IMG/VR virus record: IMGVR_UViG_2778261538_000001
DNA from: a virus
Taxonomy: Duplodnaviria; Heunggongvirae; Uroviricota; Caudoviricetes
Direction: 5' to 3' (one strand)
DNA: 43,878 nucleotides
The notes beneath the pieces are model-generated. The model was not told where the DNA came from and did not search any database. It saw nothing but the letters and a program-made list of their open reading frames with translations. This document shows, piece after piece, positions 1-37,698 of this stretch (position 1 is its first letter; the number at the start of each line of letters is the position of its first letter). The translations under genes were made by a program, and so were the position numbers.

Positions 1-1143
1 CTATGCTGTTTTGATATCTACGATAATCCAGTCTTTACCACGATCATCATTGTATCGGTCGGTCATTTTTCTGGATTTATGACCTAACAACTTTTGCGTA
101 TCCAGACCCTGTTCCCGATATAACCGTTCTGACAGAGATCGCTGCTCATGAAATGTGGGCGCAGTTCCTGGCTCCCATTTTATGCCACATTTTTCCCTGG
201 CCTTTTTAAAAGCCGTTGTAAGAGTATTTGCAGAAACCTGGTCTCCTCTGTTTGCTTGAGAGGTAGTGTGACGGTAATGGACCAGATATTTACTAACAAC
301 AGCATCCCTGCACTGAGATATAACTTCACGAAGGGTAATATTCAGAGCATCGCATTTCAGGCTAAGCGGAATAGCAAGTTTTGAACCGGTTTTTTCCTGA
401 GTAATGTGCAACATGTCGTCCCATATATCAGAGAATTTCAAATTGCAGATATCGCCTAAACGTTGTCCAGTAACAAGAGCAAGTAGCATGCCGCATTTTA
501 AATAGGGCTGCCGTCTGCTTACGCTTTCAAATATTGCCTGCCATTCGGGCAGTGATAATCTTTGGCGGTTTACTCGATTTCGCGGTTGTTTTGTTGCCTG
601 CGCTGGGTTAAATCCTGGCGGAACATGTCCTGCGTGTTGTGCTTCTTTGAAGACGTCGATCAACACCATTCTCACGACTTGCGCCATCCTGTTATGACCT
701 TCAGCCTTTACAGCATCAATTATTTCGGCAATATCAAGTGCGGTAATATCCTTGAGGTGTTGCATTCCACAATGCTCACGGAAAAGACGAATGGGTTTAC
801 CTTTTTGCCGATAGGAGTTGGGTTTTAGTTCATTATGTTGCAGCCTGTCCTCCTGGATAGAAATATATTTATCAAGCCATTCTGTCACCGTAATGTCTGA
901 ACGCCTGCCTTTCATTCTTTCTAGACGCTCATTGACGCTTAATATTTGTCGGGTACGTTGTTCAGCAATAATGGTATTTGCTTCAGTAGCAACTTGTTTT
1001 GCTTCATTCTCATCAGTTCCTAAGCTATGAAAACGACCGGATAGTGGATGTTTGTATTGCCAATATACCTTTCCGGTTCGCTTATCTAATTTGCAATATA
1101 AATTGGGTATAGAGATTTTGTGAGATCGGGGTCTAGCAGCCAT
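1..1143 (-). CDS. int: Phage tyrosine integrase (lambda-Int family), 380 aa; stop at window edge so attL should lie just left of the window
   Basis: Complete ORF with C-terminal tyrosine-recombinase-like region; positioned at prophage end, followed upstream by an xis-like gene that overlaps its start. Confidence 0.88.
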   Translation of the reverse strand: MAARPRSHKISIPNLYCKLDKRTGKVYWQYKHPLSGRFHSLGTDENEAKQVATEANTIIAEQRTRQILSVNERLERMKGRRSDITVTEWLDKYISIQEDRLQHNELKPNSYRQKGKPIRLFREHCGMQHLKDITALDIAEIIDAVKAEGHNRMAQVVRMVLIDVFKEAQHAGHVPPGFNPAQATKQPRNRVNRQRLSLPEWQAIFESVSRRQPYLKCGMLLALVTGQRLGDICNLKFSDIWDDMLHITQEKTGSKLAIPLSLKCDALNITLREVISQCRDAVVSKYLVHYRHTTSQANRGDQVSANTLTTAFKKAREKCGIKWEPGTAPTFHEQRSLSERLYREQGLDTQKLLGHKSRKMTDRYNDDRGKDWIIVDIKTA

Positions 1144-2335: not shown

Positions 2336-3088
2336 TCACACTTCGAATGCCAACTGAGGGGTAAAGACGTCCCGTTCAGCGTTGTAATTAAGTGAACTGG
2401 CACTGTTGAATGATTCAATGCGTTCCACAAGAACTTGCGTACGGGTTTCTTTACTTGCGGGAGCATATGGCGAACCTACCCAGGATTTGTCGATGCCTAT
2501 ATTTCTTGCGACGTTCGTGCTGTCTGCAGACGAAAGCGGTACATGAGTAAAAATGTCTTTATTTAACATCCGTAACCCATGAATCTTGGTGATTGGGTAG
2601 CCGTACTGATCTACAACATGACGTATAAGATCGCGTAGTTTAGCCCGACACGCTCTCGGTCGTTTTGCATCGTATTCCCCCATCGAGCCGATGCAGACGC
2701 GGGGAAACTCATGGCACAGACGAATAAATCGCTCATCTGGTTCGTTCATGTGCCACACCGGAGCACCAATAAATTTACCGTGAGGCCATGCCGCAATCAG
2801 GGCGTCATTCTCTTCACTGGTTCCGCCGATAACATCCGGGATAACCGCGAATGAGAAACGAGGGTGATTACCCCAGCGTTCAACAAATCTGTAATATTCA
2901 TTCCAGTCTACGGCCTTGTTTTTTGTCCAGAATGTGAATGCACCATTATCAAGAGCAAATGATTGGGTGACTTCGGAAGCCAGCTCAATCTGAGCTGGAT
3001 TAGCAAAACTGATGAATGCGTGTCTGCCTTTCCAGGCTTTCAACGCACAGGTATCGGGAGTTATTGGACCACCGTGAAAATGAATCAT
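2336..3088 (-). CDS. Conserved hypothetical early-left protein, 250 aa
   Basis: Long ORF, coding-like composition, start overlaps the stop of the small upstream ORF (ATGA). Confidence 0.6.
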   Translation of the reverse strand: MIHFHGGPITPDTCALKAWKGRHAFISFANPAQIELASEVTQSFALDNGAFTFWTKNKAVDWNEYYRFVERWGNHPRFSFAVIPDVIGGTSEENDALIAAWPHGKFIGAPVWHMNEPDERFIRLCHEFPRVCIGSMGEYDAKRPRACRAKLRDLIRHVVDQYGYPITKIHGLRMLNKDIFTHVPLSSADSTNVARNIGIDKSWVGSPYAPASKETRTQVLVERIESFNSASSLNYNAERDVFTPQLAFEV

Positions 3089-3243
3089 ACACTCTCCCGT
3101 TTATTATTTATCTCCTCAGCCAGTCGCTGGGCTTTCAGCGGATTTCGGATAACAGAAGGCCCGGGAAATACCCAGCCTCGCTTTGTAACGGAGTAGACGA
3201 AAGTGATCGCACCTACCCGGATATTATCGTGAGGATGCTTCAT
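3085..3243 (-). CDS. Small hypothetical protein, 52 aa, translationally coupled to exo (upstream) and to the 250-aa gene (downstream)
   Basis: ATG at 3243 overlaps the exo stop; GGAG about 9 nt upstream; its stop overlaps the ATG at 3088. Confidence 0.4.
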
Positions 3244-3920
3244 CGCCATTGCTCCCCAAATACAAAACCAATTTCAGCCAGTGCCTCGTCCATTTTTTCG
3301 ATGAACTCCGGCACCATCTCGTCAAAACTCGCCATGTACTTTTCATCCCGCTCAACCACGACATAATGCAGTCCTTCACGCTTCATACGCGGGTCATAGT
3401 TGGCAAAGTACCAGGCATCTTTTCGCGTCACCCACATGCTGTACTGCACCTGGGCCATGTAAGCTGACTTTATGGCCTCGAAACCACCGAGCCGGAACTT
3501 CATGAAATCCCGGGAGGTAAACGGGCATTTCAGTTCAAGGCCGTTGCCGTCACTGCATAAACCATCTGGAGAGCAGGCGGTACGCATACTTTCGTCGCGA
3601 TAGATGATCGGTGATTCAGTAACATTCACGCCGGAAGTGAACTCAAACAGGGCTCTGGCGTCGTTCTCGTACTGTTTTCCCCAGGCCAGCGCTTTAGCGT
3701 TAACTTCCGGAGCCACACCGGTGCAAACCTCAGCAAGCAGGGTGTGGAAGTAGGACATTTTCATGTCAGGCCACTTTTTTCCGGAGCGGGGTTTTGCTAT
3801 TACGTTATGAACTTCTGAAGCTGTGATGACGCCGAGCCGTAATTTGTGCCACGCATCATCCCCCTGTTCGACAGCTCTCACGTCGATCCCGGTACGCTGC
3901 AGGATAATGTCCGGTGTCAT
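3240..3920 (-). CDS. exo: Lambda exonuclease (Red-alpha), 226 aa
   Basis: Translation [40 protein letters not shown]... matches lambda Exo almost residue for residue (from memory). Confidence 0.97.
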
Positions 3921-4702
3921 GCTGCCACCTTCTGCTCTGCGGCTTTCTGTTTCAGGAATCCAAGAGCTTTTACTGCTTCGGCCTGTGTCAGTTCTGACGA
4001 TGCGCGAATGTCGCGGCGAAATATCTGGGAACAGAGCGGCAATAAGTCGTCATCCCATGTTTTATCCAGGGCGATCAGCAGAGTGTTAATCTCCTGCATG
4101 CTTTCATCGTTAACCGGAGTGATGTCGCGTTCCGGCTGACGTTCTGCAGTGTATGCGGTATTTTCGACAATGCGCTCGGCTTCATCCTTGTCATAGATAC
4201 CAGCAAATCCGAAGGCCAGACGGGCACACTGAATCATAGCTTTATGCCGTAACATTCGTTTGGGATGCGACTGCCACGGTCCCGTGATTTCTCTGCCTTC
4301 GCGGGTTTTGAATGGTTCGCGGCGGCATTCATCCATCCACTCGGTAACGCAGATCGGATGATTACGGTCCTTGCGGTAAATCCGGCATGTACATGATTCA
4401 TTGTCCTGCTCAAAGTCCATGCCATCAAACTGCTGGTTTTCATTAATGATGCGGGACCAGCCATCAACGCCCACCACAGGAACGATGCCGTTCTGCTTAT
4501 CAGGGAAGGCGTAAATTTCTTTCGTCCACGGATTAAGGCCGTACTGGTTGGCGACGATCAGCAATGCGATGAACTGCGCATCGCTGGCATCACCTTTAAA
4601 TGCCGTCTGACGAAGAGTGGTGATCAGTTCCTGTGGGTCGACAGAATCCATGCCGACACGTTCAGCCAGCTTCCCGGCTAGCGTTGCGAGTGCTGTACTC
4701 AT
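3917..4702 (-). CDS. bet: Lambda Bet (Red-beta) single-strand annealing protein, 261 aa
   Basis: Translation matches lambda Bet; overlaps exo start by 4 nt as in lambda. Confidence 0.97.
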
Positions 4703-4707
4703 CCGTT

Positions 4708-5004
4708 TTATACCTCTGAATCAATATCAACATGGTGGTGAGCAATGGTTTCAACCATGTACCGGATGTGTTCTGCCATGCGCTCCTGAAACTCAACATC
4801 GTCATCAAACGCACGGGTAATGGCTTTTTTGCTGGCCCCGCAGCGTTGCAAATGATCGATGCAGAGTGATTCAAACAGGTGCTGTGGAAGACCTTTTTCC
4901 ATGTCGTCTGCCAGTTCTGCCTCTTTCTCTTCACGGGCGATCTGCTGGTAGTGACGCGCCCAGCTTTGAGCCTCAAGACGATCCTGAATGTAATAAGCGT
5001 TCAT
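4708..5004 (-). CDS. gam: Gam (RecBCD inhibitor), short 98-aa form only
   Basis: Translation [21 protein letters not shown]... equals the C-terminal 98 aa of lambda Gam; no in-frame upstream start is available for the long form. Confidence 0.9.
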
Positions 5005-5079
5005 GGCTGAACTCCTGAAAATGGCTGTGAAAATATCGCCCGCGAAATGCCGGGCTGATTAGGAAAACAGGAAAGGGGA

Positions 5080-5370
5080 TTAGTGATTCAGGCCGTTGCC
5101 GCGCCCGTCGAGAAAAACTTCCACGAGCAAATCACGGGTATAAGTGCGCTCGATGCCGCGATGCAGATAAAGCCGTCCGCGTAAATTAGCTGATGCAGTC
5201 CAGGTACCATCTTTGTGTTTGACCAGCATTCCTGGCATGACCGCACCTCGATTAACGGTCTGCGTTCCGTAATGTTGATGAACCATAAAAACTCCTGCCC
5301 GTAAGCTGGGCTGCTGAACATATAGAGACTTCTGCGCGTATTCAGGCGGTGGATGGCCGCCGGTTGTCAT
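5080..5370 (-). CDS. Hypothetical early-left protein (about 96 aa from ATG at 5370; the 136-aa ORF to 5490 would need a TTG start)
   Basis: ORF in the position occupied by N/kil/cIII in lambda; GAGG upstream of the ATG at 5370; identity not recognised. Confidence 0.4.
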
Positions 5371-5539
5371 AACTAAGCCGCCTCGTTGAAACGACTGAGG
5401 TATGAAGTGTTGAGTTGATTTCAGCTGGTCACACCGACGTTCACGCGTCCGCTTCACCCCTCGCACTTCCCGAAGCCTGCTGAAATTCAAGCTGCGGATC
5501 TAAGCGGTCATCGCAACGGTGAATCAGGTGGTTGCCGTA

Positions 5540-5650
5540 TCGTTGTGTTGTTGCGATGAATTTATTTAAAACTATAGTTGTTTTGTCGTCAACAACAAAA
5601 GTTGTTTTATTGGTTGTTTTAGATGTAACTGGTTGTATTTAGGATGGGTT
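5540..5650 (-). promoter_or_regulatory. Candidate oL/pL region: GTTGTT/AACAAC inverted repeats with leftward TTGACG-17-TTAAAT promoter-like hexamers
   Basis: Palindromes GTTGTT-N8-AACAAC and AACAAC-N4-GTTGTT at about 5577-5606 share the half-site seen in the cI-cro intergenic region. Confidence 0.45.
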
Positions 5651-5733
5651 TATTTTGTGACTTGCATCGCATAGCGATAACTGAAGGGAGATTGTGGTGG
5701 TTTTTTGAACGGTATACGTGATGAGGGGAGGGG

Positions 5734-5762
5734 ATAAAAGAAAACCCGGCACGGTGGCCGGG
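5734..5762 (-). terminator. Rho-independent terminator closing the cI-kinase-phosphatase operon
   Basis: CCCGGC-acggtg-GCCGGG stem-loop followed on the minus strand by TTTTCTTTTAT, immediately 3' of the phosphatase stop. Confidence 0.7.
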
Positions 5763-5766
5763 AAGT

Positions 5767-6510
5767 TTACAAATACTTTACATTTACCGCTATAAGAGAA
5801 TAATCGTCAGTCGGGCCTTTTGTCTCTATTCTTCGCATTAGGCTGGAGGCAAACCTTGATGCGGTTGACAATGTACGGTAAGAAAATCGTGGGCGTTGCT
5901 CCCAAAAGGTATGCGCGCCATCAGACATGATGAATAGAGATAGAACACCATCGTCAAGAGGAAGTTCATCTTTATCAATATTTATGACTTGATGTTGAAG
6001 GGGGATCTTGGCAGCAAGTGCAGTTGTAATAATATTTTTACCTTTTGCATTTTTGAGCTGTCGAGCTGTATAAATACCGCTATCTATCAACATTTGATGT
6101 TGAGTATGATCTGTTGTTAATTGGATTAGCTTATTTCCATTTTTTAAATAAACACGACAGTCACCTACATGTATAATTGTTAGACCTTGATTGTGAAGTA
6201 GGCACATTGTTAAAGTTGTAGCAGCAGATGCTAATTCTTTATCAACTGACGAAAGAGATGCCACCTTTTCTTGTAGGGTCTTAAGTAAGGATAAGACATT
6301 GTCTTCATGAGTGAAGCTGTCTTTAATACTATACAAATGATTTATTACTGCTGCAGATGCTTCTTTTCCTCCTTTATAACCACCAACCCCATCAGCTATA
6401 GCCATAAGATAACCATTTGGTGTTTGAAGTGGATAAAGCACGCTATCTTGATTTTCCCTGCCATTATGTTTTGGTACAGAAAATATGGATGATGAGAGTA
6501 TGCTAATCAT
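5767..6510 (-). CDS. PP2C-family Ser/Thr protein phosphatase, 247 aa
   Basis: Motifs AIADGVGG, HVGDCRVY and FIMSDGAH in the translation; overlaps kinase stop by 4 nt; AT-rich. Confidence 0.8.
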   Translation of the reverse strand: MISILSSSIFSVPKHNGRENQDSVLYPLQTPNGYLMAIADGVGGYKGGKEASAAVINHLYSIKDSFTHEDNVLSLLKTLQEKVASLSSVDKELASAATTLTMCLLHNQGLTIIHVGDCRVYLKNGNKLIQLTTDHTQHQMLIDSGIYTARQLKNAKGKNIITTALAAKIPLQHQVINIDKDELPLDDGVLSLFIMSDGAHTFWEQRPRFSYRTLSTASRFASSLMRRIETKGPTDDYSLIAVNVKYL

Positions 6511-7232
6511 AAGCGTTTCAACTCCAATTCCTCAAAGATCTGCTCTACGGTCAGGAATCTTTTGTTAAGTTGTCTATGCGTACATTTGTTTATTATATCA
6601 TCAAAACCATCAATATTTAATTCTTCAATTAAAATACCAATTGAATATATATCTGATTGTTTTGAATATCCGTTGAGGAAAACGTTGTAATCAAAGTATT
6701 TAGGAGTAGCGGGGTATTGGCCAATTTGTGTTAATAGCTGTGTATTGGCATCTGGTGACACATTTTTTGCAAGGCCGAAGTCAGATAACTTATAAATTCC
6801 ATCTTTAAATTTTAGTACATTTAGTGGTTTTATATCCCGATGAAGATATCCTTTCTTATGAATCCATCCGACGGCATTTAGTACCATTTTTACAATAGAG
6901 ATTTTTTCAGCCTTTGTAAGAGTTCCACTTTTTATTTCTTCTTCAAGATTTGTTTCTGCTAGTTCCATTACGAACCAAGGCTGAGCATTCTGTAAGTGGC
7001 ATATGAATATTTGGACAATATTAGTATGCAGGCATTCAGTTTGATATCTTACTTCTCGTTCAAATCTGGTAAAGAGTTCAGGATCTGTTGCATCAGGTCG
7101 TAAAATTTTTCTGGCATATAGACCACAAATTTTTCTTTGTGAGTTATATAACCTTATTTTTTCTACAAGGCCAAAACCGCCAGAACCAATTACTTCTAGG
7201 GGTTCTATTAGGTAATTCCCACGTTCTTCCAT
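6507..7232 (-). CDS. Minimal Hanks-type Ser/Thr protein kinase, 241 aa
   Basis: Gly-rich loop GSGGFG, conserved Lys (YARK), catalytic loop HRDIKPLN, DFG motif (LSDFGLAK); AT-rich; directly downstream of cI. Confidence 0.85.
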   Translation of the reverse strand: MEERGNYLIEPLEVIGSGGFGLVEKIRLYNSQRKICGLYARKILRPDATDPELFTRFEREVRYQTECLHTNIVQIFICHLQNAQPWFVMELAETNLEEEIKSGTLTKAEKISIVKMVLNAVGWIHKKGYLHRDIKPLNVLKFKDGIYKLSDFGLAKNVSPDANTQLLTQIGQYPATPKYFDYNVFLNGYSKQSDIYSIGILIEELNIDGFDDIINKCTHRQLNKRFLTVEQIFEELELKRL

Positions 7233-7327
7233 TGTTCATCCTTTTAAGTTAGACAAAAGGAAAAATATAATGCAATGTTATCGATGCTTTTTTGAAGCCA
7301 AAGTTAACTTGTTGAATTTATGTCGAA

Positions 7328-8017
7328 TTATCCATGCTTCCTATACGTCTGCGGCATGCTCCCGATGACTTTCCCGAAGATGAATACCCGGTTCATCTCG
7401 TCTTTCTCGATTGGGTCCCACGGTGAGTAGCTCTTGTTATCAGAGATAACCAGCAGTTTATCCTTCATCATTTGCAGGCGCTTTACATGGGCTGTGTCGT
7501 CGTACAGAAACGCATAGATACCATCACCGTCGAAAGATTTAACCGTGATATCAACGAACAGCAGATCACCTGGTTCGATCGTTCCTGACATGCTGTCACC
7601 GCGTACGTTAATGATACGGATATTTTCCGCCTTCCTGCCATCGAACATGTGACGAGCATCGTCAAACGAATACTCAACCGAACGTAGAACTTCTACAAAC
7701 TCACGGTTGATGACTCCCGGCCCGGCACTCACTTCGATATCAAGAACGTCAATCTTAAAGTATTTGGAATGGCTGACAGTTGTTTGTATTGGTTGCACTG
7801 TACTGTCTGACATATTTCCAACGCCAGAAGATAACCATTCTGCGCGCACACCCAAAGCGTTCGCGATCTCCACGATTTTAGTTGTTTGGTTAGCTTTCCC
7901 TGTTTCGATTTTCTGAATAGCTGCTTGGCTAACCCCGACCAAATCCCCAAGCGCCTTTTGTGTAAGGCCTCGCGCTAATCTGGCTTCTTTAAGTCTTTCT
8001 GAGAGTGTTGTTTTCAT
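7328..8017 (-). CDS. cI: CI-type prophage repressor (HTH plus LexA-like S24 autopeptidase domain), 229 aa from ATG at 8017
   Basis: N-terminal HTH (LTQKALGDLVGVSQAAIQKIETG), C-terminal GDSM and VKRL Ser/Lys dyad motifs; divergent from cro. Confidence 0.85.
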   Translation of the reverse strand: MKTTLSERLKEARLARGLTQKALGDLVGVSQAAIQKIETGKANQTTKIVEIANALGVRAEWLSSGVGNMSDSTVQPIQTTVSHSKYFKIDVLDIEVSAGPGVINREFVEVLRSVEYSFDDARHMFDGRKAENIRIINVRGDSMSGTIEPGDLLFVDITVKSFDGDGIYAFLYDDTAHVKRLQMMKDKLLVISDNKSYSPWDPIEKDEMNRVFIFGKVIGSMPQTYRKHG

Positions 8018-8121
8018 AGTCCAAATGTACAACCAAGGTTTTATTTCATCAAACGAAAATGGTTGTTGACTAAAAACAACCATGGTTTTAATCTTGATTC
8101 AAATTAACCACGGAGGTTGTT
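8018..8121. promoter_or_regulatory. oR operator / pRM-pR divergent promoter region
   Basis: Palindromes AACCAAGGTT (8031-8040), GGTTGTT-N7-AACAACC (8061-8081), AACCATGGTT (8078-8087); rightward TTGACT (8066-8071)-17 bp-TAATCT (8089-8094); GGAGG RBS before cro. Confidence 0.55.
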
Positions 8122-8352
8122 ATGAACCCAGCCATCAAAACAGCGATCAATATCGTTGGTTCACAAAAGAAACTAGGCGCTGCCTGCGAAGTTTCACAGC
8201 AGGCCGTCTATAAGTGGCTTCACAACAAAGCAAAGGTATCCCCTGAACATGTCGGCAGCATTGTTACGGCTACTGGTGGAGTAGTGAAGGCATACCAGAT
8301 TCGCCCGGATCTTCCGAAGTTGTTTCCACACACTGAAAAGAACGCAGCTTAA
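8122..8352 (+). CDS. cro: Cro-like HTH regulator (YdaS-like), 76 aa
   Basis: Small HTH protein divergent from cI at the immunity region. Confidence 0.75.
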   Translation: MNPAIKTAINIVGSQKKLGAACEVSQQAVYKWLHNKAKVSPEHVGSIVTATGGVVKAYQIRPDLPKLFPHTEKNAA

Positions 8353-8364
8353 ATTTCCATTTCA

Positions 8365-8376
8365 CGCTCTTTAACA
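8365..8376 (+). promoter_or_regulatory. boxA-like motif CGCTCTTTAACA (possible nutR)
   Basis: Close match to lambda boxA (CGCTCTTA...) between cro and the next gene; no convincing boxB hairpin seen. Confidence 0.3.
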
Positions 8377-22149: not shown

Positions 22150-22356
22150 GTGATCCAGACCGTTACGGGGCGGCGACCTCGCGGGTTTTCGCTATTTATG
22201 AAAATTTTCCGGTTTAAGGCGTTTCCGTTCTTCTTCGCCGTAACCTAATGTTTTTATTTAAAACACCCCCTGAAAAGAAAGGAAACGACAGGTGCTGAAA
22301 ACGGGCTTTTTAGCCTCTGTCGTTTCCTTTCTCTGTTTTTGTCCGTGGAATGAACA
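22150..22356 (+). other. cos site: cosN with 12-nt cohesive end GGGCGGCGACCT at 22168-22179, followed by cosB up to the Nu1 start
   Basis: Sequence ...CCGTTACGGGGCGGCGACCTCGCGGGTTTTCGCTATTTATGAAAATTTTCCGG... matches the lambda cos region. Confidence 0.85.
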
Positions 22357-22876
22357 ATGGAAGTCAACAAAAAGCAGCTGGCTGACATTTTCGGTGCGAG
22401 TATCCGTACCATTCAGAACTGGCAGGAGCAGGGAATGCCCGTTCTGCGAGGTGGTGGGAAGGGTAATGAGGTGCTTTATGACTCTGCCGCCGTCATAAAA
22501 TGGTATGCCGAAAGGGATGCTGAAATTGAGAACGAAAAGCTGCGCCGGGAGGTTGAAGAACTGCGGCAGGCCAGCGAGGCAGATCTCCAGCCAGGGACTA
22601 TTGAGTACGAACGCCATCGACTTACGCGTGCGCAGGCCGACGCACAGGAACTGAAGAATGCCAGAGACTCCGCTGAAGTGGTGGAAACCGCATTCTGTAC
22701 TTTCGTGTTGTCGCGGATCGCAGGTGAAATTGCCAGTATTCTCGACGGGATCCCCCTGTCGGTGCAGCGGCGTTTTCCGGAACTGGAAAACCGACATGTT
22801 GATTTCCTGAAACGGGATATCATCAAAGCCATGAACAAAGCAGCCGCGCTGGATGAACTGATACCGGGGTTGCTGA

Positions 22877-22902
<26 letters not shown>
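22357..22902 (+). CDS. nu1: Terminase small subunit Nu1, 181 aa
   Basis: Translation MEVNKKQLADIFGASIRTIQNWQEQGMPVLRGGGKGNEVLY... essentially identical to lambda Nu1. Confidence 0.97.
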
Positions 22903-26583
<3,681 letters not shown>

Positions 26584-26603
<20 letters not shown>

Positions 26604-27915
26604 TCTCCCGCATATTGCCAGCATGGCCTTTAATGAGCCGCTGATGCTTGAACCCGCCTATGCGCGGGTTTTCTTTTGTGCGCTTGCAGGCCAGCTTGGG
26701 ATCAGCCGCCTGACGGATGCGGTGTCCGGCGACAGCCTGACTGCCCAGGAGGCACTCGCGACGCTGGCATTATCCGGTGATGATGACGGACCACGACAGG
26801 CCCGGAGTTATCAGGTCATGAACGGCATCGCCGTGCTGCCGGTGTCCGGCACGCCGGTCAGCCGGACGCGGGCGCTGCAGCCGTACTCGGGGATGACCGG
26901 TTACAACGGCATTATCGCCCGTCTGCAACAGGCTGCCAGCGACCCGATGGTGGACGGCATTCTGCTCGATATGGACACGCCAGGCGGAATGGTGGCGGGG
27001 GCATTTGACTGCGCTGACATCATCGCCCGTGTGCGTGACATAAAACCGGTATGGGCGCTGGCCAACGACATGAACTGCAGTGCAGGTCAGCTGCTTGCCA
27101 GTGCCGCCTCCCGGCGTCTGGTCACGCAGACCGCCCGGACAGGCTCCATCGGCGTCATGATGGCTCACAGTAATTACGGTGCTGTCCTGGAGAAACAGGG
27201 TGTGGAAATCACGCTGATTTACAGCGGCAGCCATAAGGTGGATGGCAATCCCTACAGCCATCTTCCGGATGACGTCCGGGAGACACTGCAGTCCCGGATG
27301 GACGCAACCCGCCAGATGTTTGCGCAGAAGGTGTCGGCATATACCGGCCTGTCTGTGCAGGCTGTGCTGGATACCGAGGCTGCAGTGTACAGCGGTCAGG
27401 AGGCCATTGATGCCGGACTGGCTGATGAACTTGTTAACAGCAGCGATGCGATCACCGTCATGCGTGATGCACTGGATGCACGTAAATCCCGTCTCTCAGG
27501 AGGGCGAATGACCAAAGAGACTCAATCAACAACTGTTTCAGCCACTGCTTCGCAGGCTGACATCACCACCGTGGAGCCTGCGAAGGAGGGCGAAAACGCC
27601 AGCGCGGCGCAGCCGGATGTGAACGCACAGATCACCGCAGCGGTTGCGGCAGAAAACAGCCGCATTATGGGGATCCTCAACTGTGAGGAGGCTCACGGAC
27701 GCGAAGAACAGGCGCGCGTTCTGGCAGAAACCCCCGGAATGACCGTGGAAACGGCCCGCCGCATTCTGGCCGCAGCACCACAGAGTGCACAGGCGCGCAG
27801 TGACACTGCGCTGGATCGTCTGATGCAGGGTGCACCGGCACCGCTGGCTGCAGGTAACCTGGCATCTGATACCAATAAAGAATTACTTAATACACCTGAA
27901 GCTTTACCGGTATAA
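26584..27915 (+). CDS. C: Prohead protease / minor capsid protein C (GTG start at 26584), about 443 aa
   Basis: Translation from TAELRNLPHIASMAFNEPLMLEPAYARVFF... matches lambda gpC; extreme C-terminus differs slightly. Confidence 0.9.
27508..27915 (+). CDS. nu3: Scaffolding protein Nu3 (in-frame internal start within C)
   Basis: Internal ATG at 27508 (MTKETQSTTVSATASQ...) preceded by GGAGGG, as in lambda. Confidence 0.7.
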   Translation: MTKETQSTTVSATASQADITTVEPAKEGENASAAQPDVNAQITAAVAAENSRIMGILNCEEAHGREEQARVLAETPGMTVETARRILAAAPQSAQARSDTALDRLMQGAPAPLAAGNLASDTNKELLNTPEALPV

Positions 27916-27924
27916 GAGGCAGTT

Positions 27925-28257
27925 ATGGCGACAAAAGAAGAGTTTAACCATTACCAGCCGCTGGGTAACAGTGATCCGGCTCATACAGCAATTGCGCCTG
28001 GCGGATTGAGTGCGAAAACGCCTGCAATGACCCCACTGATGCTGGATGGCACTACCCGTAAGCTGGTTGTGTGGGATGGCACCACCGACGGTGCAGCCGT
28101 TGGCATTCTTGCGGTTGCTGCTGACCAGACCAGCACCACACTGACGTTCTACAAGTCCGGCTCGTTCCGTTATGAGGATGTGCTCTGGCCGGAGGCTGCC
28201 AGCGACGAGACGAAAAAACGGACCGCGTTTGCCGGAACGGCAATCAGCATCGTTTAA
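27925..28257 (+). CDS. D: Head decoration protein D, 110 aa
   Basis: Translation closely matches lambda gpD. Confidence 0.95.
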
Positions 28258-28312
28258 TCTTCCCCTTCATCAACAAAGGCCGCCTGTGCGGCTTTTTTTA
28301 TGGAAATAATTT

Positions 28313-29338
28313 ATGTCTGTATATACAACTGCAGAATTACTGGCATCGACCCAGCATCACTTTAAGTTCGATCCGCTGTTTCTGCGCCTGTTTTTCCGTG
28401 AAACCTATCCTTTCACCACGGAAAAAGTCTATCTCTCACAAATTCCGGGACTGGTAAACATGGCGCTGTACGTTTCGCCGATTGTTTCCGGTGAGGTTAT
28501 CCGATCCCGTGGCGGCTCCACCTCTGAATTTACGCCGGGTTATGTCAAGCCGAAGCATGAGGTGAATCCGCAGATGACCCTGCGTCGCCTGCCGGATGAA
28601 GATCCGCAGAACCTGGCTGACCCGGCTTACCGTCGTCGCCGTATTATTCGGCAGAATATGCTGGATGAAAATCTGGCGATTGCCCAGGTCGAAGAGATGC
28701 AGGCAGTTTCTGCCGTGCTTAAGGGCAAATATACCATGACCGGTGAAGCCTTCGATCCGGTTGAGGTGGATATGGGCCGCAGTGAGGCGAATAACATCAC
28801 GCAGTCCGGCGGCACGGAGTGGAGCAAGCGTGACAAGTCCACGTATGACCCGACCGACGATATCGAAGCCTACGCGCTGAACGCCAGCGGTGTGGTGAAT
28901 ATCATCGTGTTTGATCCGAAAGGCTGGGCGCTGTTCCGTTCCTTCAAAGCCGTCAAGGAGAAGCTGGATACCCGTCGCGGCTCTCATTCCGAGCTGGAGA
29001 CAGCGGTAAAAGACCTGGGCAAAGCGGTGTCTTATAAGGGAATGTATGGCGATGTGGCCATCGTCGTGTATTCCGGACAGTACGTGGAAAACGGCGTCAA
29101 AAAGAACTTCCTGCCGGACAACACGATGGTGCTGGGGAACACTCAGGCACGCGGTCTGCGCACCTATGGTTGCATTCAGGATGCGGACGCACAGCGCGAA
29201 GGCATTAACGCCTCTGCCCGTTACCCGAAAAACTGGGTGACCACCGGCGACCCGGCGCGTGAGTTCACCATGATTCAGTCAGCACCGCTGATGCTGCTGG
29301 CTGACCCTGATGAGTTCGTGTCTGTACAACTGGCGTAA
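28313..29338 (+). CDS. E: Major capsid protein E, 341 aa
   Basis: Length and translation match lambda gpE. Confidence 0.97.
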   Translation: MSVYTTAELLASTQHHFKFDPLFLRLFFRETYPFTTEKVYLSQIPGLVNMALYVSPIVSGEVIRSRGGSTSEFTPGYVKPKHEVNPQMTLRRLPDEDPQNLADPAYRRRRIIRQNMLDENLAIAQVEEMQAVSAVLKGKYTMTGEAFDPVEVDMGRSEANNITQSGGTEWSKRDKSTYDPTDDIEAYALNASGVVNIIVFDPKGWALFRSFKAVKEKLDTRRGSHSELETAVKDLGKAVSYKGMYGDVAIVVYSGQYVENGVKKNFLPDNTMVLGNTQARGLRTYGCIQDADAQREGINASARYPKNWVTTGDPAREFTMIQSAPLMLLADPDEFVSVQLA

Positions 29339-29379
29339 TCATGGCCCTTCGGAGCCATTGTTTCTCTGTGGAGGAGTCC

Positions 29380-29775
29380 ATGACGAAAGATGAACTGATT
29401 GCCCGTCTCCGCTCGCTGGGTGAACAACTGAACCGTGATATCAGCCTGACGGGGACGAAAGAAGAACTGGCGCTCCGTGTGGCAGAACTGGAAGAAGAGC
29501 TTGATGACACGGGCGACACTGCCGGTCAGGATATCCCTCTCAGCCCGGAAAATGTGCTGACCGGACATGAAAATGAGGTTGTATCAGCGCAGCCGGATAC
29601 CGTGACTGATACGGCTGATCTGGTCACGGTTGTGGCACTGGTGACGCTGCATACTGATGCACTTCACGCCACGCGGGATGAGGCTGTGGCATTTGTGCTG
29701 CCGGGAACGGCGTTCCGTGTCTCTGCCGGTGTGGCAGCTGAAATGACAGAGCGCGGCCTGGCCAGAATACAATAA
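29380..29775 (+). CDS. FI: DNA packaging protein FI, 131 aa
   Basis: Translation MTKDELIARLRSLGEQLNRD... matches lambda FI. Confidence 0.9.
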   Translation: MTKDELIARLRSLGEQLNRDISLTGTKEELALRVAELEEELDDTGDTAGQDIPLSPENVLTGHENEVVSAQPDTVTDTADLVTVVALVTLHTDALHATRDEAVAFVLPGTAFRVSAGVAAEMTERGLARIQ

Positions 29776-29786
29776 CGGGAGGCGCT

Positions 29787-30140
29787 GTGGCTGATTTCGA
29801 TAACCTGTTCGATGCTGCCATTGCCTGCGCCGATGAAACGATACGCGGGTACATGGGAACGTCAGCCACCATGACATCCGGTGAGCAGTCCGGTGCTGTG
29901 ATACGTGGTGTTTTTGATGACCCTGAAAATATCAGCTATGCCGGACAGGGCGTGCGCGTTGAAGGCTCCAGCCCGTCCCTATTTGTCCGGACTGATGATG
30001 TGCGGCAGCTGCGGCGCGGCGACACGCTGACCATCGGTGAGGAAAACTTCTGGATAGACCGGATTTCGCCGGATGATGGCGGAAGCTGTCATCTCTGGCT
30101 TGGGCGGGGCGTACCGCCTGCCGTTAACCGTCGCCGCTGA
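29787..30140 (+). CDS. FII: Head completion protein FII, 117 aa
   Basis: Translation matches lambda FII. Confidence 0.95.
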   Translation: MADFDNLFDAAIACADETIRGYMGTSATMTSGEQSGAVIRGVFDDPENISYAGQGVRVEGSSPSLFVRTDDVRQLRRGDTLTIGEENFWIDRISPDDGGSCHLWLGRGVPPAVNRRR

Positions 30141-30151
30141 AAGGGGGATGT

Positions 30152-30730
30152 ATGGCCATAAAAGGTCTTGAGCAGGCCGTTGAAAACCTCAGCCGTATCA
30201 GCAGAACGGCGGTGCCCGGTGCCGCCGCAATGGCCATTAACCGCGTTGCTTCATCCGCGATATCGCAGTCGGTGGCACAGGTTGCCCGTGAGACAAAGGT
30301 ACGCCGGAAACTGGTAAAGGAAAGGGCCAGGCTGAAAAGGGCCACAGTCAAAAATCCGCAGGCCAGAATCAAAGTTAACCGGGGGGATTTGCCCGTAATC
30401 AGGCTGGGTAACGCGCGGGTTGTCCTGTCCCGACGCAGGCGTCGTAAAAAGGGGCAGCGTTCATCCCTGAAAGGTGGCGGCAGCGTGCTTGTGGTGGGAA
30501 ACCGTCGTATTCCCGGCGCGTTTATTCAGCAACTGAAAAATGGCCGCTGGCATGTCATGCAGCGTGTGGCCGGGAAAAACCGTTACCCCATTGATGTGGT
30601 GAAAATTCCGATGGCGGTGCCGCTGACCACGGCGTTTAAACAGAATATTGAGCGGATACGGCGTGAGCGTCTTCCGAAAGAGCTGGGCTATGCGCTGCAG
30701 CATCAACTGAGGATGGTAATAAAGCGATGA
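30152..30730 (+). CDS. Z: Tail completion protein Z, 192 aa
   Basis: Length and order match lambda gpZ. Confidence 0.93.
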   Translation: MAIKGLEQAVENLSRISRTAVPGAAAMAINRVASSAISQSVAQVARETKVRRKLVKERARLKRATVKNPQARIKVNRGDLPVIRLGNARVVLSRRRRRKKGQRSSLKGGGSVLVVGNRRIPGAFIQQLKNGRWHVMQRVAGKNRYPIDVVKIPMAVPLTTAFKQNIERIRRERLPKELGYALQHQLRMVIKR

Positions 30731-31122
30731 AACATACTGAACTCCGTGCAGCCGTACTGGATGCACTGGAAAAACATGACACCGGGGCGACGCTTTTTGA
30801 TGGTCGCCCCGCTGTTTTTGATGAGGCGGATTTTCCGGCAATTGCCGTTTATCTCACCGGCGCTGAATACACGGGCGAAGAGCTGGACAGCGATACCTGG
30901 CAGGCGGAGCTGCATATTGAAGTTTTCCTGCCTGCTCAGGTGCCGGATTCAGCGCTGGATTCGTGGATGGAGTCCCGGATTTATCCGGTGATGAGCGATA
31001 TCCCGGCACTGTCAGATTTGATCACCAGTATGGTGGCCAGTGGCTATGACTACCGACGCGACGATGATGCGGGCCTGTGGAGTTCAGCCGATCTGACTTA
31101 TGTCATTACCTATGAAATGTGA
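30727..31122 (+). CDS. U: Tail terminator U, 131 aa
   Basis: Length and order match lambda gpU. Confidence 0.93.
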
Positions 31123-31129
31123 GGACGAT

Positions 31130-31870
31130 ATGCCTGTACCAAATCCTACAATGCCGGTGAAAGGTGCCGGGACCACACTGTGGGTTTATAAGGGGAACGG
31201 TGACCCTTATGCGAACCCGCTTTCAGACGTGGACTGGTCGCGTCTGGCAAAAGTTAAAGACCTGACGCCCGGCGAACTGACCGCTGAGTCCTATGACGAC
31301 AGCTATCTCGATGATGAAGATGCGGACTGGACTGCGACCGGGCAGGGGCAGAAATCAGCCGGAGATACCAGCTTCACGCTGGCGTGGATGCCCGGAGAAC
31401 AGGGGCAGCAGGCGCTGCTGGCGTGGTTTAATGAAGGTGATACCCGTGCCTATAAAATCCGCTTCCCGAACGGCACGGTCGATGTGTTCCGTGGCTGGGT
31501 CAGCAGTATCGGTAAAGCGGTGACGGCGAAGGAAGTGATCACCCGCACGGTGAAGGTCACCAATGTGGGACGCCCGTCGATGGCAGAAGATCGCAGCACG
31601 GTCACAGCGGCAACCGGCATGACCGTGACGCCTGCCAGCACCTCGGTGGTGAAAGGGCAGAGCACGACGCTGACCGTGGCATTCCAGCCGGAAGGCGCAA
31701 CCGACAAGAGCTTCCGTGCGGTGTCTGCGGATAAAACAAAAGCCACCGTGTCGGTCAGTGGTATGACCATCACCGTGAACGGCGTTGCTGCAGGCAGGGT
31801 CAACATTCCGGTTGTATCCGGTAATGGTGAGTTTGCTGCGGTTGCAGAAATCACCGTCACCGCCAGTTAA
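31130..31870 (+). CDS. V: Major tail protein V, 246 aa
   Basis: Translation [22 protein letters not shown]... matches lambda gpV. Confidence 0.95.
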
Positions 31871-31885
31871 TCCGGAGAGTCAGCG

Positions 31886-32308
31886 ATGTTCCTGAAAACC
31901 GAATCATTTGAACATAACGGCGTGACCGTCACGCTTTCTGAACTGTCAGCCCTGCAGCGTATTGAGCATCTTGCCCTGATGAAACGGCAGGCAGAACAGG
32001 CGGAGTCAGACAGCAACCGGCAGGTTACTGTGGAAGACGTCATCAGAACCGGCGCTTTTGTGGTGGCGATGTCCCTGTGGCATAACCATCCGAAGAAGAC
32101 GCAGATGCCGTCCATGAATGAGGCCGTTAAACAGATTGAGCAGGAAGTGCTTACCACCTGGCCCACAGAGGCAATTTCTCATGCTGAAAACGTGGTGTAC
32201 CGGCTGTCCGGTATGTCTGAGTTTGTGGTGAATAATGCCCCTGAACAGGCAGAGGACGCCGGGCCTGCAGAGCCTGTTTCTGCGGGAAAGTGTTCGACGG
32301 TGAGCTGA
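31886..32308 (+). CDS. G: Tail assembly chaperone G, 140 aa
   Basis: Translation matches lambda gpG; ends just after slippery heptamer. Confidence 0.95.
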   Translation: MFLKTESFEHNGVTVTLSELSALQRIEHLALMKRQAEQAESDSNRQVTVEDVIRTGAFVVAMSLWHNHPKKTQMPSMNEAVKQIEQEVLTTWPTEAISHAENVVYRLSGMSEFVVNNAPEQAEDAGPAEPVSAGKCSTVS

Positions 32309-32724
32309 GTTTTGCCCTGAAACTGGCGCGTGAGATGGGGCGACCCGACTGGCGCGCCATGCTTGCCGGGATGTCATCCACGGAGTATGCCGACTGGCAC
32401 CGCTTTTACAGTACCCACTATTTTCATGATGTTCTGCTGGATATGCACTTTTCCGGGCTGACGTACACCGTACTCAGCCTGTTTTTCAGCGATCCGGATA
32501 TGCATCCGCTGGATTTCAGTCTGCTGAACCGGCGTGAGGCTGACGAAGAGCCTGAAGATGATGTGCTGATGCAGAAAGCGGCAGGGCTTGCCGGAGGCGT
32601 CCGCTTTGACCCGGACGGGAATGAAGTTATCCCCGCTTCCCCGGATGTGACGGGCATGACGGAGGATGACGTAATGCTGATGACAGTATCAGAAGGGATC
32701 GCAGGAGGAGTCCGGTATGGCTGA
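32290..32724 (+). CDS. T: T segment of the G-T tail assembly chaperone, expressed by programmed -1 frameshift at G GGA AAG (32284-32290)
   Basis: Slippery heptamer GGGAAAG in the G frame; -1 frame continues as VFDGELSFALKLAREMGRPDW... to 32724. Confidence 0.8.
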   Translation: MFDGELSFALKLAREMGRPDWRAMLAGMSSTEYADWHRFYSTHYFHDVLLDMHFSGLTYTVLSLFFSDPDMHPLDFSLLNRREADEEPEDDVLMQKAAGLAGGVRFDPDGNEVIPASPDVTGMTEDDVMLMTVSEGIAGGVRYG

Positions 32725-35296
32725 ACCGGTAGGCGATCTGGTCGTTGATTTAAGTCTGGATGCGGCCAGATTTGACGAGCAGATGGCCAGAGTCAGGCGT
32801 CATTTTTCCGGTACGGAAACTGATGCGAAAAAAACAGCGGCAGTCGTTGAACAGTCGATGAACCGGCAGGCGCTGGCTGCACAGAAAGCGGGGATTTCCG
32901 TCGGGCAGTATAAAGCTGCCATGCGTATGCTGCCTGCGCAGTTCACCGACGTGGCCACGCAGCTTGCAGGCGGGCAAAGTCCGTGGCTGATCCTGCTGCA
33001 ACAGGGTGGTCAGGTTAAGGACTCCTTCGGCGGGATGATCCCCATGTTCCGGGGGCTTGCCGGTGCGATCACCCTGCCGATGGTCGGGGCCACCTCGCTG
33101 GCGGTGGCGACCGGTGCGCTGGCGTATGCCTGGTATCAGGGTAACTCAACCCTGTCCGATTTCAACAAAACGCTGGTCCTTTCCGGTAATCAGTCGGGTC
33201 TGACGGCAGATCGTATGCTGGTCCTGTCCAGAGCCGGGCAGGCGGCAGGGCTGACGTTTAACCAGACCAGCGAGTCACTCAGTGCACTGGTTAAGGCGGG
33301 GGTAAGCGGTGAGGCTCAGATTGCGTCCATCAGCCAGAGTGTGGCGCGTTTCTCCTCTGCATCCGGCGTGGAGGTGGACAAGGTCGCTGAAGCCTTCGGG
33401 AAGCTGACCACTGACCCGACGTCGGGGCTGACGGCGATGGCGCGCCAGTTCCATAACGTGACGGCGGAGCAAATTGCGTATGTTGCTCAGTTGCAGCGTT
33501 CCGGCGATGAGGCCGGGGCATTGCAGGCAGCGAACGAGGCCGCAACGAAAGGGTTTGATGACCAGACCCGCCGCCTGAAAGAGAACATGGGCACGCTGGA
33601 GACCTGGGCAGACAGGACTGCGCGGGCATTCAAATCCATGTGGGATTCGGTGCTGGATATTGGTCGCCCGGACACAGCCCAGGAAATGCTGGAGAAAGCA
33701 GAAAAGGCTTTTGATGAGGCGGACAAAAAATGGCAGTGGTATCAGAGCCGGAGCCACCGGCGCGGTAAAACCTCAGCATTTCTTGCCAATCTCCGTGGAG
33801 CATGGGAGGACAGAGCGAATGCGCAACTTGGGCTTTCAGCCGCCACGTTGCAGGCCGATCTGGAAAAGGCCAGAGAGATGGCAGCAAAGGACTGGGCCGA
33901 CTCTGAGGCATCACGGCTGAAATATACCGAAGAGGCGCAGAAGGCTTACGAACGCCTGCAGACGCCGCTGGAGAAATATACCGCCCGTCAGGAAGAACTG
34001 AACAAGGCACTGAAGGACGGGAAAATCCTGCAGGCAGATTACAACACGCTGATGGCGGCGGCGAAAAAGGATTATGAAGCGACGCTGAAAAAGCCGAAAC
34101 AGTCCGGCGTGAAGGTGTCTGCGGGCGATCGTCAGGAAGACAGTGCTCATGCTGCCCTTCTGACGCTTCAGGCAGAACTCCGGACGCTGGAGAAGCATGC
34201 CGGAGCGAATGAGAAAATCAGCCAGCAGCGCCGGGATTTGTGGAAGGCAGAAAGTCAGTTCGCGGTACTGGAGGAGGCCGCACAACGTCGCCAGCTGTCT
34301 GCACAGGAGAAATCCCTGCTGGCGCATAAAGATGAGACGCTGGAGTACAAACGCCAGCTGGCTGCACTTGGCGACAAGGTTACGTATCAGGAGCACCTGA
34401 ACGCGCTGGCGCAGCAGGCGGATAAATTTGCACAGCAGCAACGGGCAAAACGGGCCGCCATTGATGCGAAAAGCCGGGGGCTGACTGACCGGCAGGCAGC
34501 GCGGGAAGCCACGGAACAGCGTCTGAAGGAGCAGTATGGCGATAATCCGCTGGCGCTGAATAACGTCATGTCAGAGCAGAAAAAGACCTGGGCAGCTGAA
34601 GACCAGCTTCGCGGGAGCTGGATGGCAGGCCTCAAGTCAGGCTGGAGTGAGTGGGAAGAGAGCGCCACGGACAGTATGTCGCAGGTTAAAAGTGCTGCCA
34701 CGCAGACCTTTGATGGTATTGCGCAAAATATGGCGGCGATGCTGACCGGCAGTGAACAGAACTGGCGCAGCTTCACCCGTTCCGTGCTGTCCATGATGAC
34801 AGAAATTCTGCTTAAGCAGGCAATGGTGGGAATTGTCGGGAGTATCGGCAGCGCCATTGGCGGTGCTGCCGGTGGTGGCGCATCAGCGTCAGGCGGTACA
34901 GCCATTCAGGCTGCTGCGGCGAAATTCCATTTTGCGACCGGAGGATTTACGGGAACCGGCGGCAAATATGAGCCAGCGGGGATTGTTCACCGTGGTGAAT
35001 TTGTCTTCACGAAGGAGGCAACCAGCCGGATTGGCGTGGGAAATCTCTACCGGCTGATGCGCGGCTATGCCACCGGCGGTTATGTCGGTGGCACCGGAAG
35101 TCCGGCGCAAATGCGGCGTTCAGAGGGTATCAGGTTTGAGCAGAACAACAACGTGGTGATTCAGAACGACGGTACGAATGGTCTGCCAGGTCCACAGATG
35201 ATGAAGGCGGTGTATGACATGGCCCGCAAGGGTGCCCGTGATGAAATCCAGGCACAGATGCGCGATGGTGGTCTGTTCTCCGGAGGTGGACGATGA
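32717..35296 (+). CDS. H: Tail tape-measure protein H, 859 aa
   Basis: Length, position and translation match lambda gpH. Confidence 0.95.
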   Translation: MAEPVGDLVVDLSLDAARFDEQMARVRRHFSGTETDAKKTAAVVEQSMNRQALAAQKAGISVGQYKAAMRMLPAQFTDVATQLAGGQSPWLILLQQGGQVKDSFGGMIPMFRGLAGAITLPMVGATSLAVATGALAYAWYQGNSTLSDFNKTLVLSGNQSGLTADRMLVLSRAGQAAGLTFNQTSESLSALVKAGVSGEAQIASISQSVARFSSASGVEVDKVAEAFGKLTTDPTSGLTAMARQFHNVTAEQIAYVAQLQRSGDEAGALQAANEAATKGFDDQTRRLKENMGTLETWADRTARAFKSMWDSVLDIGRPDTAQEMLEKAEKAFDEADKKWQWYQSRSHRRGKTSAFLANLRGAWEDRANAQLGLSAATLQADLEKAREMAAKDWADSEASRLKYTEEAQKAYERLQTPLEKYTARQEELNKALKDGKILQADYNTLMAAAKKDYEATLKKPKQSGVKVSAGDRQEDSAHAALLTLQAELRTLEKHAGANEKISQQRRDLWKAESQFAVLEEAAQRRQLSAQEKSLLAHKDETLEYKRQLAALGDKVTYQEHLNALAQQADKFAQQQRAKRAAIDAKSRGLTDRQAAREATEQRLKEQYGDNPLALNNVMSEQKKTWAAEDQLRGSWMAGLKSGWSEWEESATDSMSQVKSAATQTFDGIAQNMAAMLTGSEQNWRSFTRSVLSMMTEILLKQAMVGIVGSIGSAIGGAAGGGASASGGTAIQAAAAKFHFATGGFTGTGGKYEPAGIVHRGEFVFTKEATSRIGVGNLYRLMRGYATGGYVGGTGSPAQMRRSEGIRFEQNNNVVIQNDGTNGLPGPQMMKAVYDMARKGARDEIQAQMRDGGLFSGGGR

Positions 35297-35622
35297 AAAC
35301 CTTCCGCTGGAAAGTGAAACCCGGGATGGATGTGACATCGGCTCCTTCCGTCAGGGAGGTGCGCTTTGGTGATGGCTATTCCCAGCGTGCGCCTGCCGGG
35401 CTGAACGCTGACCTGAAAACGTACAGCGTGACGCTGTCTGTCTCCCGTGAGGAGGCCACGGCGCTGGAGTCGTTTCTGGCTGAGCACGGGGGCTGGAAGG
35501 CCTTTCTGTGGACGCCGCCTTATGGTTACAGGCAGATAAAGGTGACCTGCGCAAAATGGTCGTCGCAGGTCAGTATGTTGCGTGTTGAGTTCAGCGCAGA
35601 GTTTAAACAGGTGGTGAACTGA
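35293..35622 (+). CDS. M: Tail tip protein M, 109 aa
   Basis: Matches lambda gpM. Confidence 0.95.
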   Translation: MKTFRWKVKPGMDVTSAPSVREVRFGDGYSQRAPAGLNADLKTYSVTLSVSREEATALESFLAEHGGWKAFLWTPPYGYRQIKVTCAKWSSQVSMLRVEFSAEFKQVVN

Positions 35623-36320
35623 TGCAGGATATCCGGCAGGAAACACTGAATGAATGCACCCGTGCGGAGCAGTCGGCCAGCGTGGTGCTCTGGGAAATCG
35701 ATCTGACAGAGGTCGGTGGAGAACGTTATTTTTTCTGTAATGAGCAGAACGAAAAAGGTGAGCCGGTCACCTGGCAGGGGAGGCAGTATCAGGCGTATCC
35801 CATTCAGGGGAGTGGTTTTGAACTGAATGGCAAAGGCACCAGTACGCGCCCCACGCTGACGGTTTCTAACCTGTACGGTATGGTCACCGGGATGGCGGAA
35901 GATCTGCAGAGTCTGGTCGGCGGAACGGTGGTCAAGCGTAAGGTTTACGCCCGTTTTCTGGATGCGGTGAACTTCGTCAACGGAAACAGTGACGCCGATC
36001 CGGAGCAGGAGGTGATCAGCCGCTGGCGCATTGAGCAGTGCAGCGAACTGAGCGCGGTCAGTGCCTCTTTTGTACTGTCCACGCCGACGGAAACGGACGG
36101 CGCTGTTTTTCCGGGACGTATCATGCTGGCCAACACCTGCACCTGGACCTATCGCGGCGATGAGTGCGGTTATCACGGTCCGGCGGTCGCGGATGAATAT
36201 GACCAGCCAACGTCCGATATCACGAAGGATAAATGCAGCAAATGCCTGAGCGGTTGTAAGTTCCGCAATAACGTCGGCAACTTTGGCGGCTTCCTTTCCA
36301 TTAACAAACTTTCGCAGTAA
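35622..36320 (+). CDS. L: Tail tip protein L, 232 aa
   Basis: Matches lambda gpL. Confidence 0.95.
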   Translation: MQDIRQETLNECTRAEQSASVVLWEIDLTEVGGERYFFCNEQNEKGEPVTWQGRQYQAYPIQGSGFELNGKGTSTRPTLTVSNLYGMVTGMAEDLQSLVGGTVVKRKVYARFLDAVNFVNGNSDADPEQEVISRWRIEQCSELSAVSASFVLSTPTETDGAVFPGRIMLANTCTWTYRGDECGYHGPAVADEYDQPTSDITKDKCSKCLSGCKFRNNVGNFGGFLSINKLSQ

Positions 36321-36325
36321 ATCCC

Positions 36326-37069
36326 ATGACACAGACAGAATCAGCGATTCTGGCGCACGCCCGGCGATGTGCGCCAGCGGAGTCGTGCGGCTTCGTGGTA
36401 AGCACGCCGGAGGGGGAAAGATATTTCCCCTGCGTGAATATCTCCGGTGAGCCGGAGGCGTATTTCCGTATGTCGCCGGAAGACTGGCTGCAGGCAGAAA
36501 TGCAGGGTGAGATTGTGGCGCTGGTCCACAGCCACCCCGGTGGTCTGCCCTGGCTGAGTGAGGCTGACCGGCGGCTGCAGGTGCAGAGTGATTTGCCGTG
36601 GTGGCTGGTCTGCCGGGGGGCGATTCATAAGTTCCGCTGTGTGCCGCATCTCACCGGGCGGCGCTTTGAGCACGGGGTGACGGACTGTTACACGCTGTTC
36701 CGGGATGCTTATCATCTGGCGGGGATTGAGATGCCGAATTTTCATCGCGGGGATGACTGGTGGCGTCACGGTCAGAATCTCTATCTGGATAATCTGGAGG
36801 CCACAGGGCTGTATCAGGTGCCGTTGTCAGCGGCGCAGCCGGGCGATGTGCTGCTGTGCTGTTTTGGTTCATCGGTGCCGAATCATGCCGCCATTTACTG
36901 TGGTGACGGCGAGCTGCTGCACCATATTCCTGAACAACTGAGCAAACGAGAGAGGTATACCGACAAATGGCAGCGACGCACACACTCCCTCTGGCGTCAC
37001 CGGGCATGGCACGCATCTGCCTTTACGGGGATTTGCAACGATTTGGCCGCCGCATCGATCTTCGTGTGA
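36326..37069 (+). CDS. K: Tail tip assembly protein K, 247-aa ORF (the shorter form I recall for lambda would start at the internal Met at 36470)
   Basis: Translation matches lambda K; Cys/His-containing NlpC/P60-like region visible. Confidence 0.88.
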   Translation: MTQTESAILAHARRCAPAESCGFVVSTPEGERYFPCVNISGEPEAYFRMSPEDWLQAEMQGEIVALVHSHPGGLPWLSEADRRLQVQSDLPWWLVCRGAIHKFRCVPHLTGRRFEHGVTDCYTLFRDAYHLAGIEMPNFHRGDDWWRHGQNLYLDNLEATGLYQVPLSAAQPGDVLLCCFGSSVPNHAAIYCGDGELLHHIPEQLSKRERYTDKWQRRTHSLWRHRAWHASAFTGICNDLAAASIFV

Positions 37070-37638: not shown

Positions 37639-37698
37639 TGAAAAACGTTTTATGTGAAACCGCCTCAGGGCGGTTTTGTCGTTTCTGGAGCGTGAGGA

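Follow-up and report, generated by a model that had tools for sequence, protein, structure and literature searches.

The gam gene at positions 4708 to 5004 (minus strand) of a 43,878-nucleotide phage sequence from IMG/VR, hereafter called the window, is very probably a normal and intact gene of a lambda-like E. coli prophage, present in a common allelic form that encodes the short protein only. The 98-amino-acid protein is the sole form of Gam that can be encoded in the window. A short-only gam is the commonest natural arrangement and no peculiarity; the arrangement found here is already known and ordinary. None of the sequence contradicts this explanation; two minority substitutions in the protein (H55C and Q91H) may weigh against it. 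As a RecBCD inhibitor, the gene would be a standard one in its most common natural form, and little biological weight attaches to it.

The gam gene and its translation signals

The gam ORF comprises 297 nt, starts with ATG at 5004..5002 and stops with TAA at 4710..4708; an ORF list that takes the first start after a stop gives a product of 98 aa. A sequence-only reading of the window had described it as the C-terminal 98 aa of lambda Gam. This was borne out, as 94 of the 98 residues are identical to residues 41-138 of lambda Gam (the short isoform GamS), and at the DNA level 286/297 nt are identical. The substitutions that distinguish the window protein from lambda GamS are L22I, H55C, S61A and Q91H (GamS numbering). 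The Pfam model PF06064 Gam was matched with 210.3 bits against a cutoff of 25 (E 3.7e-63; residues 1-98 on model positions 1-98 of 98) and PHROG 259 over 1-98 of 98 positions (E 1.9e-59). The PDB chains 5mbv_A and 2uuz_A matched the full-length protein in a phmmer search with E values of about 3e-59, and these GamS chains share about 96% identity with it. Such similarities are far beyond chance. The full-length model match above the curated threshold, the close relation to a structurally characterised GamS chain and the genomic context, with gam directly upstream of bet and exo and all three on the minus strand, place the ORF in the Gam family. An NCBIfam search with Gam gave no match at E ≤ 0.001.

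GamS is the form present in the solved RecBCD complex, in which a dimer blocks the DNA site and an N-terminal helix lies in the ssDNA channel of RecB (Wilkinson et al. 2016, PMC5218532). As it is about 96% identical to the Gam seen with RecBCD by cryo-EM, the window Gam is expected to bind and inhibit RecBCD as well. By homology, it would dimerise as GamS does and fill the duplex-DNA site of RecBCD, and one N-terminal helix would insert into the 3'-ssDNA channel of RecB.

A strong Shine-Dalgarno site, AGGAG, is located 7 nt before the gam ATG (5012..5016, -). The anti-Shine-Dalgarno duplex predicted for this start has an energy of -6.9 kcal/mol, which ranks close to the 5th percentile among background 20-mers from the window, and the 20 nt before the lambda GamL ATG yield a predicted +0.4 kcal/mol. 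The stop codon of gam is followed after 5 nt by the ATG of bet (4702..4700), as in lambda. Both bet (RecT family; 3917..4702, -) and exo (YqaJ/lambda exonuclease; 3240..3920, -) were assigned from their ORFs and family matches. Lambda GamS (PDB 2UUZ/2UV1, 5MBV) has the same length, the same Shine-Dalgarno and start context, the same spacer hairpin and the same position before bet and exo as the window gene. It is proposed that gam would be transcribed leftwards within an early-left operon of kil, gam, bet and exo, and that its own Shine-Dalgarno site would direct the translation of a 98-aa protein equivalent to lambda GamS.

Among the matches listed in a survey of viral contigs (described below), I22 and A61 are the majority alleles, while C55 (H55C in 11 of 109 contigs) and H91 (Q91H in 3 of 109) are minority alleles. 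A protein identical to the window Gam is encoded by at least two viral contigs. Apart from these two minority substitutions, nothing specific speaks for the alternative that gam is a decaying gene of a defective prophage without a functional product. This is highly improbable, as the ORF has its full length with Shine-Dalgarno site, start and stop intact, bet and exo are intact and translationally juxtaposed, and the window holds a complete lambda-like structural gene set with 95-97% identity to lambda.

The kil-gam junction and the upstream frame

Upstream of its ATG, the gam frame runs through 18 sense codons, none of them ATG, GTG or TTG, and is closed by an in-frame TAA at 5061..5059 (-), 19 codons upstream of the start. 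The sequence-only reading had likewise seen no in-frame upstream start and had named a misread one as the point at which it might fail; a search that included the GamL frame found none. In lambda, the 138-aa isoform GamL (NC_001416 32816..33232), whose C-terminal 98 residues are homologous to the window Gam, starts at an in-frame ATG 40 codons upstream, inside the lambda-type kil, and no such ATG is present in the window. In the lambda GamL frame upstream of a 1-nt indel (see below), there is no start codon either in the context of a KilR-type kil, and a viral contig that combines a KilR-type kil with a lambda-type spacer (L067) has 60 open codons without a start. As the gam frame is shut by the TAA and the GamL frame is startless, no 138-aa form can be encoded.

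The sequence-only reading had explained the missing long form by a recombination junction just 5' of gam at which lambda sequence had been replaced, and had proposed a nucleotide alignment with lambda to place the breakpoint. In a blastn comparison of the whole window with the lambda genome, one block was obtained (3086-5086, equal to lambda 31194-33193) with 96.95% identity, and a three-way alignment gave the same edge of similarity. The similarity extends 82 nt upstream of the GamS ATG to position 5086, at the last two kil codons, which read ...CAC TAA in both phages (TAA at 5082..5080 in the window). Upstream of 5086, window and lambda are unrelated in sequence; the mosaic junction is at position 5086/5087. 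The proposed junction is thus real, but it is situated 82 nt further upstream, at the boundary of kil and spacer in the region of the kil stop codon. Lambdoid phages are typically mosaics with exchanges at gene boundaries, and a missing long frame is no evidence of a junction at the start of the gene.

In place of the 47-aa kil of lambda, which is overlapped there by cIII, the window carries a KilR-type kil of 68 aa with its own Shine-Dalgarno site GGCAGGAG (5080..5286, -). Its product has no sequence similarity to lambda Kil and matched PHROG 294, 'Kil protein for bacterial septation inhibition', with E 1.3e-37. The KilR of the Rac prophage, an FtsZ inhibitor protein (NCBIfam NF008465), shares this PHROG. 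The window Kil aligns with the Rac KilR model over 1-70 of 73 positions, but with 63.1 bits it scores below the curated cutoff of 92, which makes it a relative outside the NF008465 subfamily. RefSeq annotates the identical 207-nt kil CDS in an E. coli genome whose junction matches that of the window at 100% identity. The kil frame is also open further upstream to a TTG at 5490 (5287-5490, -), which would add an arginine-rich segment, RGVKRTRERR, reminiscent of the arginine-rich motifs in N proteins. This upstream segment has no PHROG or Pfam match, and RefSeq annotates the 68-aa Kil alone.

The GamL ATG (lambda 33232) lies inside the lambda kil, 46 nt before the kil stop (33187), and the exchange of kil therefore removes it; together with the first 13 codons of GamL, which also lie in the lambda-type kil, it is absent from the window. 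The remaining 81 of the 120 coding nt of the GamL extension exist in the window as untranslated spacer. The lambda-homologous stretch made up of this spacer and the last kil codons (82 nt; 5005..5086, -) was delimited by alignment and blastn; two substitutions and one indel separate it from lambda. The indel is part of a polymorphic site at 5018..5023 (-), where the window has TTTT (5021..5018) and lambda TTT, linked to a C at 5023 in the window and a T in lambda. The spacer reads CAGCCATTTTCAGGAG in the window and CAGCTATTTCAGGAG in lambda. The extra T shifts the GamL frame so that lambda's CTA ATC is read as ...C TAA TC..., which creates the TAA at 5061..5059. The frame would thus be closed even if a lambda-type kil were present, by a second and independent cause. 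Replacement of lambda sequence, the cause given in the sequence-only reading, is accordingly only a part of the explanation: kil was swapped together with the GamL ATG, but the 1-nt spacer polymorphism closes the frame as well. A 138-aa GamL frame would require both a lambda-type kil as the source of the ATG and the TTT spacer haplotype, and the window phage has neither, since its kil was exchanged at the stop boundary and its spacer is TTTT.

The kil-gam spacer also contains a GC-rich hairpin, GCCCGGCATTTCGCGGGC, which is terminator-like with its T-rich tail (5038..5055, -) and identical in sequence in lambda, where it would belong to the tL2 terminator cluster. Lambda's annotated GamL frame would be translated through the counterpart of this hairpin. 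In an RNA folding analysis, the spacer was not distinctive beyond the single GC hairpin (z = -1.45), and a scan of the whole window with Rfam at gathering thresholds gave no match.

Distribution of the short form and the GamL extension

The same combination of KilR-type kil, spacer haplotype and 98-aa Gam is found in PhiR47_2, 4A7, Perceval and E. coli KC-Dl-1, and the coliphages PhiR47_2, 4A7, Perceval and others share 96-100% identity with the window over the junction. Viral contigs were surveyed in IMG/VR with an exact 25-mer spanning the gam start, which matched at least 120 contigs, and 120 of them were classed according to the type of kil, the spacer haplotype and the presence of an upstream start. 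These are the first matches and were not de-replicated, so that the frequencies are rough. Among the matches listed, the largest class was that of the window, KilR-type kil with TTTT (55/120), followed by lambda-type kil with TTT (30/120) and lambda-type kil with TTTT (29/120). Only the lambda-type kil with TTT showed the 40-codon extension with its ATG, i.e. the GamL ORF, while the other two classes had no upstream start. A start was equally absent, among the matches listed, from KilR-type kil with TTT (2/120; L004 and L067), from lambda-type kil with TTT and another indel (2/120) and from one contig (L034; 1/120) with neither haplotype, in which unrelated sequence reaches up to the Shine-Dalgarno site. 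In the last contig of the matches listed (L064; 1/120), a KilR-type kil with TTTT has a mutated stop, and the read-through ORF provides a start by fusion. Its kil stop reads CACTAC, and the frame before gam (start at oriented position 7329) is open for 130 codons with several possible starts.

In total, an upstream start was absent from 89 of the 120 viral contigs among the matches listed (74%), and even of the contigs with a lambda-type kil, 31 of 61 among the matches listed lacked the long form. The kil-gam junction of the window was found at a query coverage of at least 80% in 2,156 of 5,426 complete E. coli genomes, several of them 100% identical, and over two thousand complete E. coli genomes share it at an identity of at least 90%. 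The lambda-type junction occurred in 1,387 of the 5,426 genomes. More diverged relatives are short-only too: the Gam of Salmonella phage SEN34 (70% identical) has 98 aa only, the same Shine-Dalgarno site and 21 upstream codons without a start, and that of Shigella phage 75/02 Stx (83% identical) has 98 aa only and a stop one codon upstream. RefSeq calls a 297-nt gam (98 aa) in the true lambda prophage of a K-12 genome as well as in an E. coli genome with the junction of the window, while the lambda reference record still carries the 138-aa CDS. The sequence-only reading's premise of 138 aa as the expected state is therefore weak, since most natural gam loci encode 98 aa only, and the 138-aa Gam of the lambda reference is unsuitable as the expected length when the gam of other phages is judged.

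Homopolymer runs are error-prone on some sequencing platforms, and the extra T at 5018-5021 might be an error of sequencing or assembly in a locus that is really lambda-like and in frame. This was rejected and is effectively refuted, as the haplotype recurs in independent assemblies: 85 of the 120 independent viral contigs among the matches listed carry CCATTTT with the linked C/T substitution, and several finished E. coli genomes match it at 100% identity. Moreover, the two contigs with TTT and a KilR-type kil still have no start codon.

According to the survey, most natural lambdoid phages can do without the long frame, which fits the use of GamS in structural studies, cell-free systems and recombineering. 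The absence of GamL from the window phage presumably has no functional cost. It could be argued instead that its absence is a meaningful loss, i.e. that GamL is functional and selected and was lost through kil replacement and frameshift with a phenotypic consequence. GamL is one of two described isoforms and is treated as real in the literature. Expressed from plasmids, GamS and GamL both potentiate ciprofloxacin in E. coli with an about four-fold lower MIC, and in some disc assays with K. pneumoniae GamL had a somewhat stronger effect than GamS (PMC5218532). However, the plasmid 'GamL' constructs keep the internal Shine-Dalgarno site and ATG and could also make GamS. The GamL ATG has no Shine-Dalgarno site, the Gam models of Pfam and PHROG have 98 positions, and the extension is absent from 74% of the sampled contigs, from half of the lambda-kil loci (both among the matches listed) and from the diverged homologues. 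A literature search yielded no usable ribosome-profiling evidence on the gam start. The 'GamL' of a 2025 Genome Research paper was discarded, as it is an unrelated phi80 protein and not the long lambda isoform.

To assess selection on the extension, distinct changes in the 74-nt spacer were sorted by their effect in the GamL frame, separately for the two haplotypes. In frame-intact TTT contigs, there were 6 synonymous to 5 non-synonymous changes, with an expected synonymous fraction of 0.23 (binomial p 0.024), while the frame-broken TTTT haplotype had 5 to 14 (p 0.48). The contrast between the haplotypes was not significant with these small counts (Fisher one-sided p 0.12). The synonymous excess in GamL-capable contigs is small and gives a weak hint of a function of the extension, which this phage would lack. 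A meaningful loss of GamL is regarded as unlikely. Only slightly less doubtful is the reading that the 40-residue GamL extension is a young, lineage-restricted overprint which exists only at a lambda-type kil with TTT and is under weak purifying selection. If this were true, lambdoid phages would naturally be polymorphic in their Gam isoform content, by presence or absence, and those like the window phage would be natural GamS-only controls for the role of GamL.

The early-left region and the wider window

Besides the ordinary short-only gam, several features of the surrounding region were recorded. Two genes lie between an S24-type repressor gene (7328..8083, -) and kil-gam-bet-exo, one for a Ser/Thr kinase (6507..7232), the other for a PP2C phosphatase (5767..6510). 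A terminator-like hairpin (5762..5745) comes after PP2C. No recognisable N, cIII, ea10, ral or sieB was present in the early-left region 5287-8090. The kinase/PP2C cassette occupies the position of rexAB in lambda, and related phages have other cassettes at this site; PhiR47_2 has the GevAT toxin-antitoxin instead of kinase and PP2C in the interval from the repressor gene to the putative pL. The site looks like a swappable accessory or defence slot that is expressed in the lysogen.

Operator-like repeats of the type AAAACAAC...GTTGTTTT at 5566-5610 are inverted copies of repeats at 8048-8091 in the divergent region of repressor and cro. They suggest an early-left promoter (oL/pL) near 5560-5610, downstream of the kinase/PP2C cassette, which would be the one used for gam, and an oR at the repressor/cro divergent region. 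A promoter scan called no site near 5560-5610. The start of the longest repressor ORF (8083) overlaps the repeats at 8048-8091, so that the true start is probably an internal Met (MKTTLSERL...).

A 15-mer, CGCAGCTT(G/A)AATTTC, occurs at 5482-5496 (-) downstream of the putative pL and at 8343-8357 (+) downstream of cro, in both cases in the same orientation relative to transcription. The right-hand copy is followed by CGCTCTTTAACAA at 8364-8376, which resembles the boxA consensus. The 15-mers and the boxA-like sequence are candidates for nut- or put-like antitermination sites in a phage without a recognisable N.

As a whole, the window has the appearance of a complete lambda-like (Lambdavirus) prophage that starts at int (1..1143, -). 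It departs from lambda at the integrase end, in the immunity region, in the side tail fibres and in parts of the nin region, while the head and tail genes in 22168-40195 are 95-97% identical to lambda from nu1 through J.
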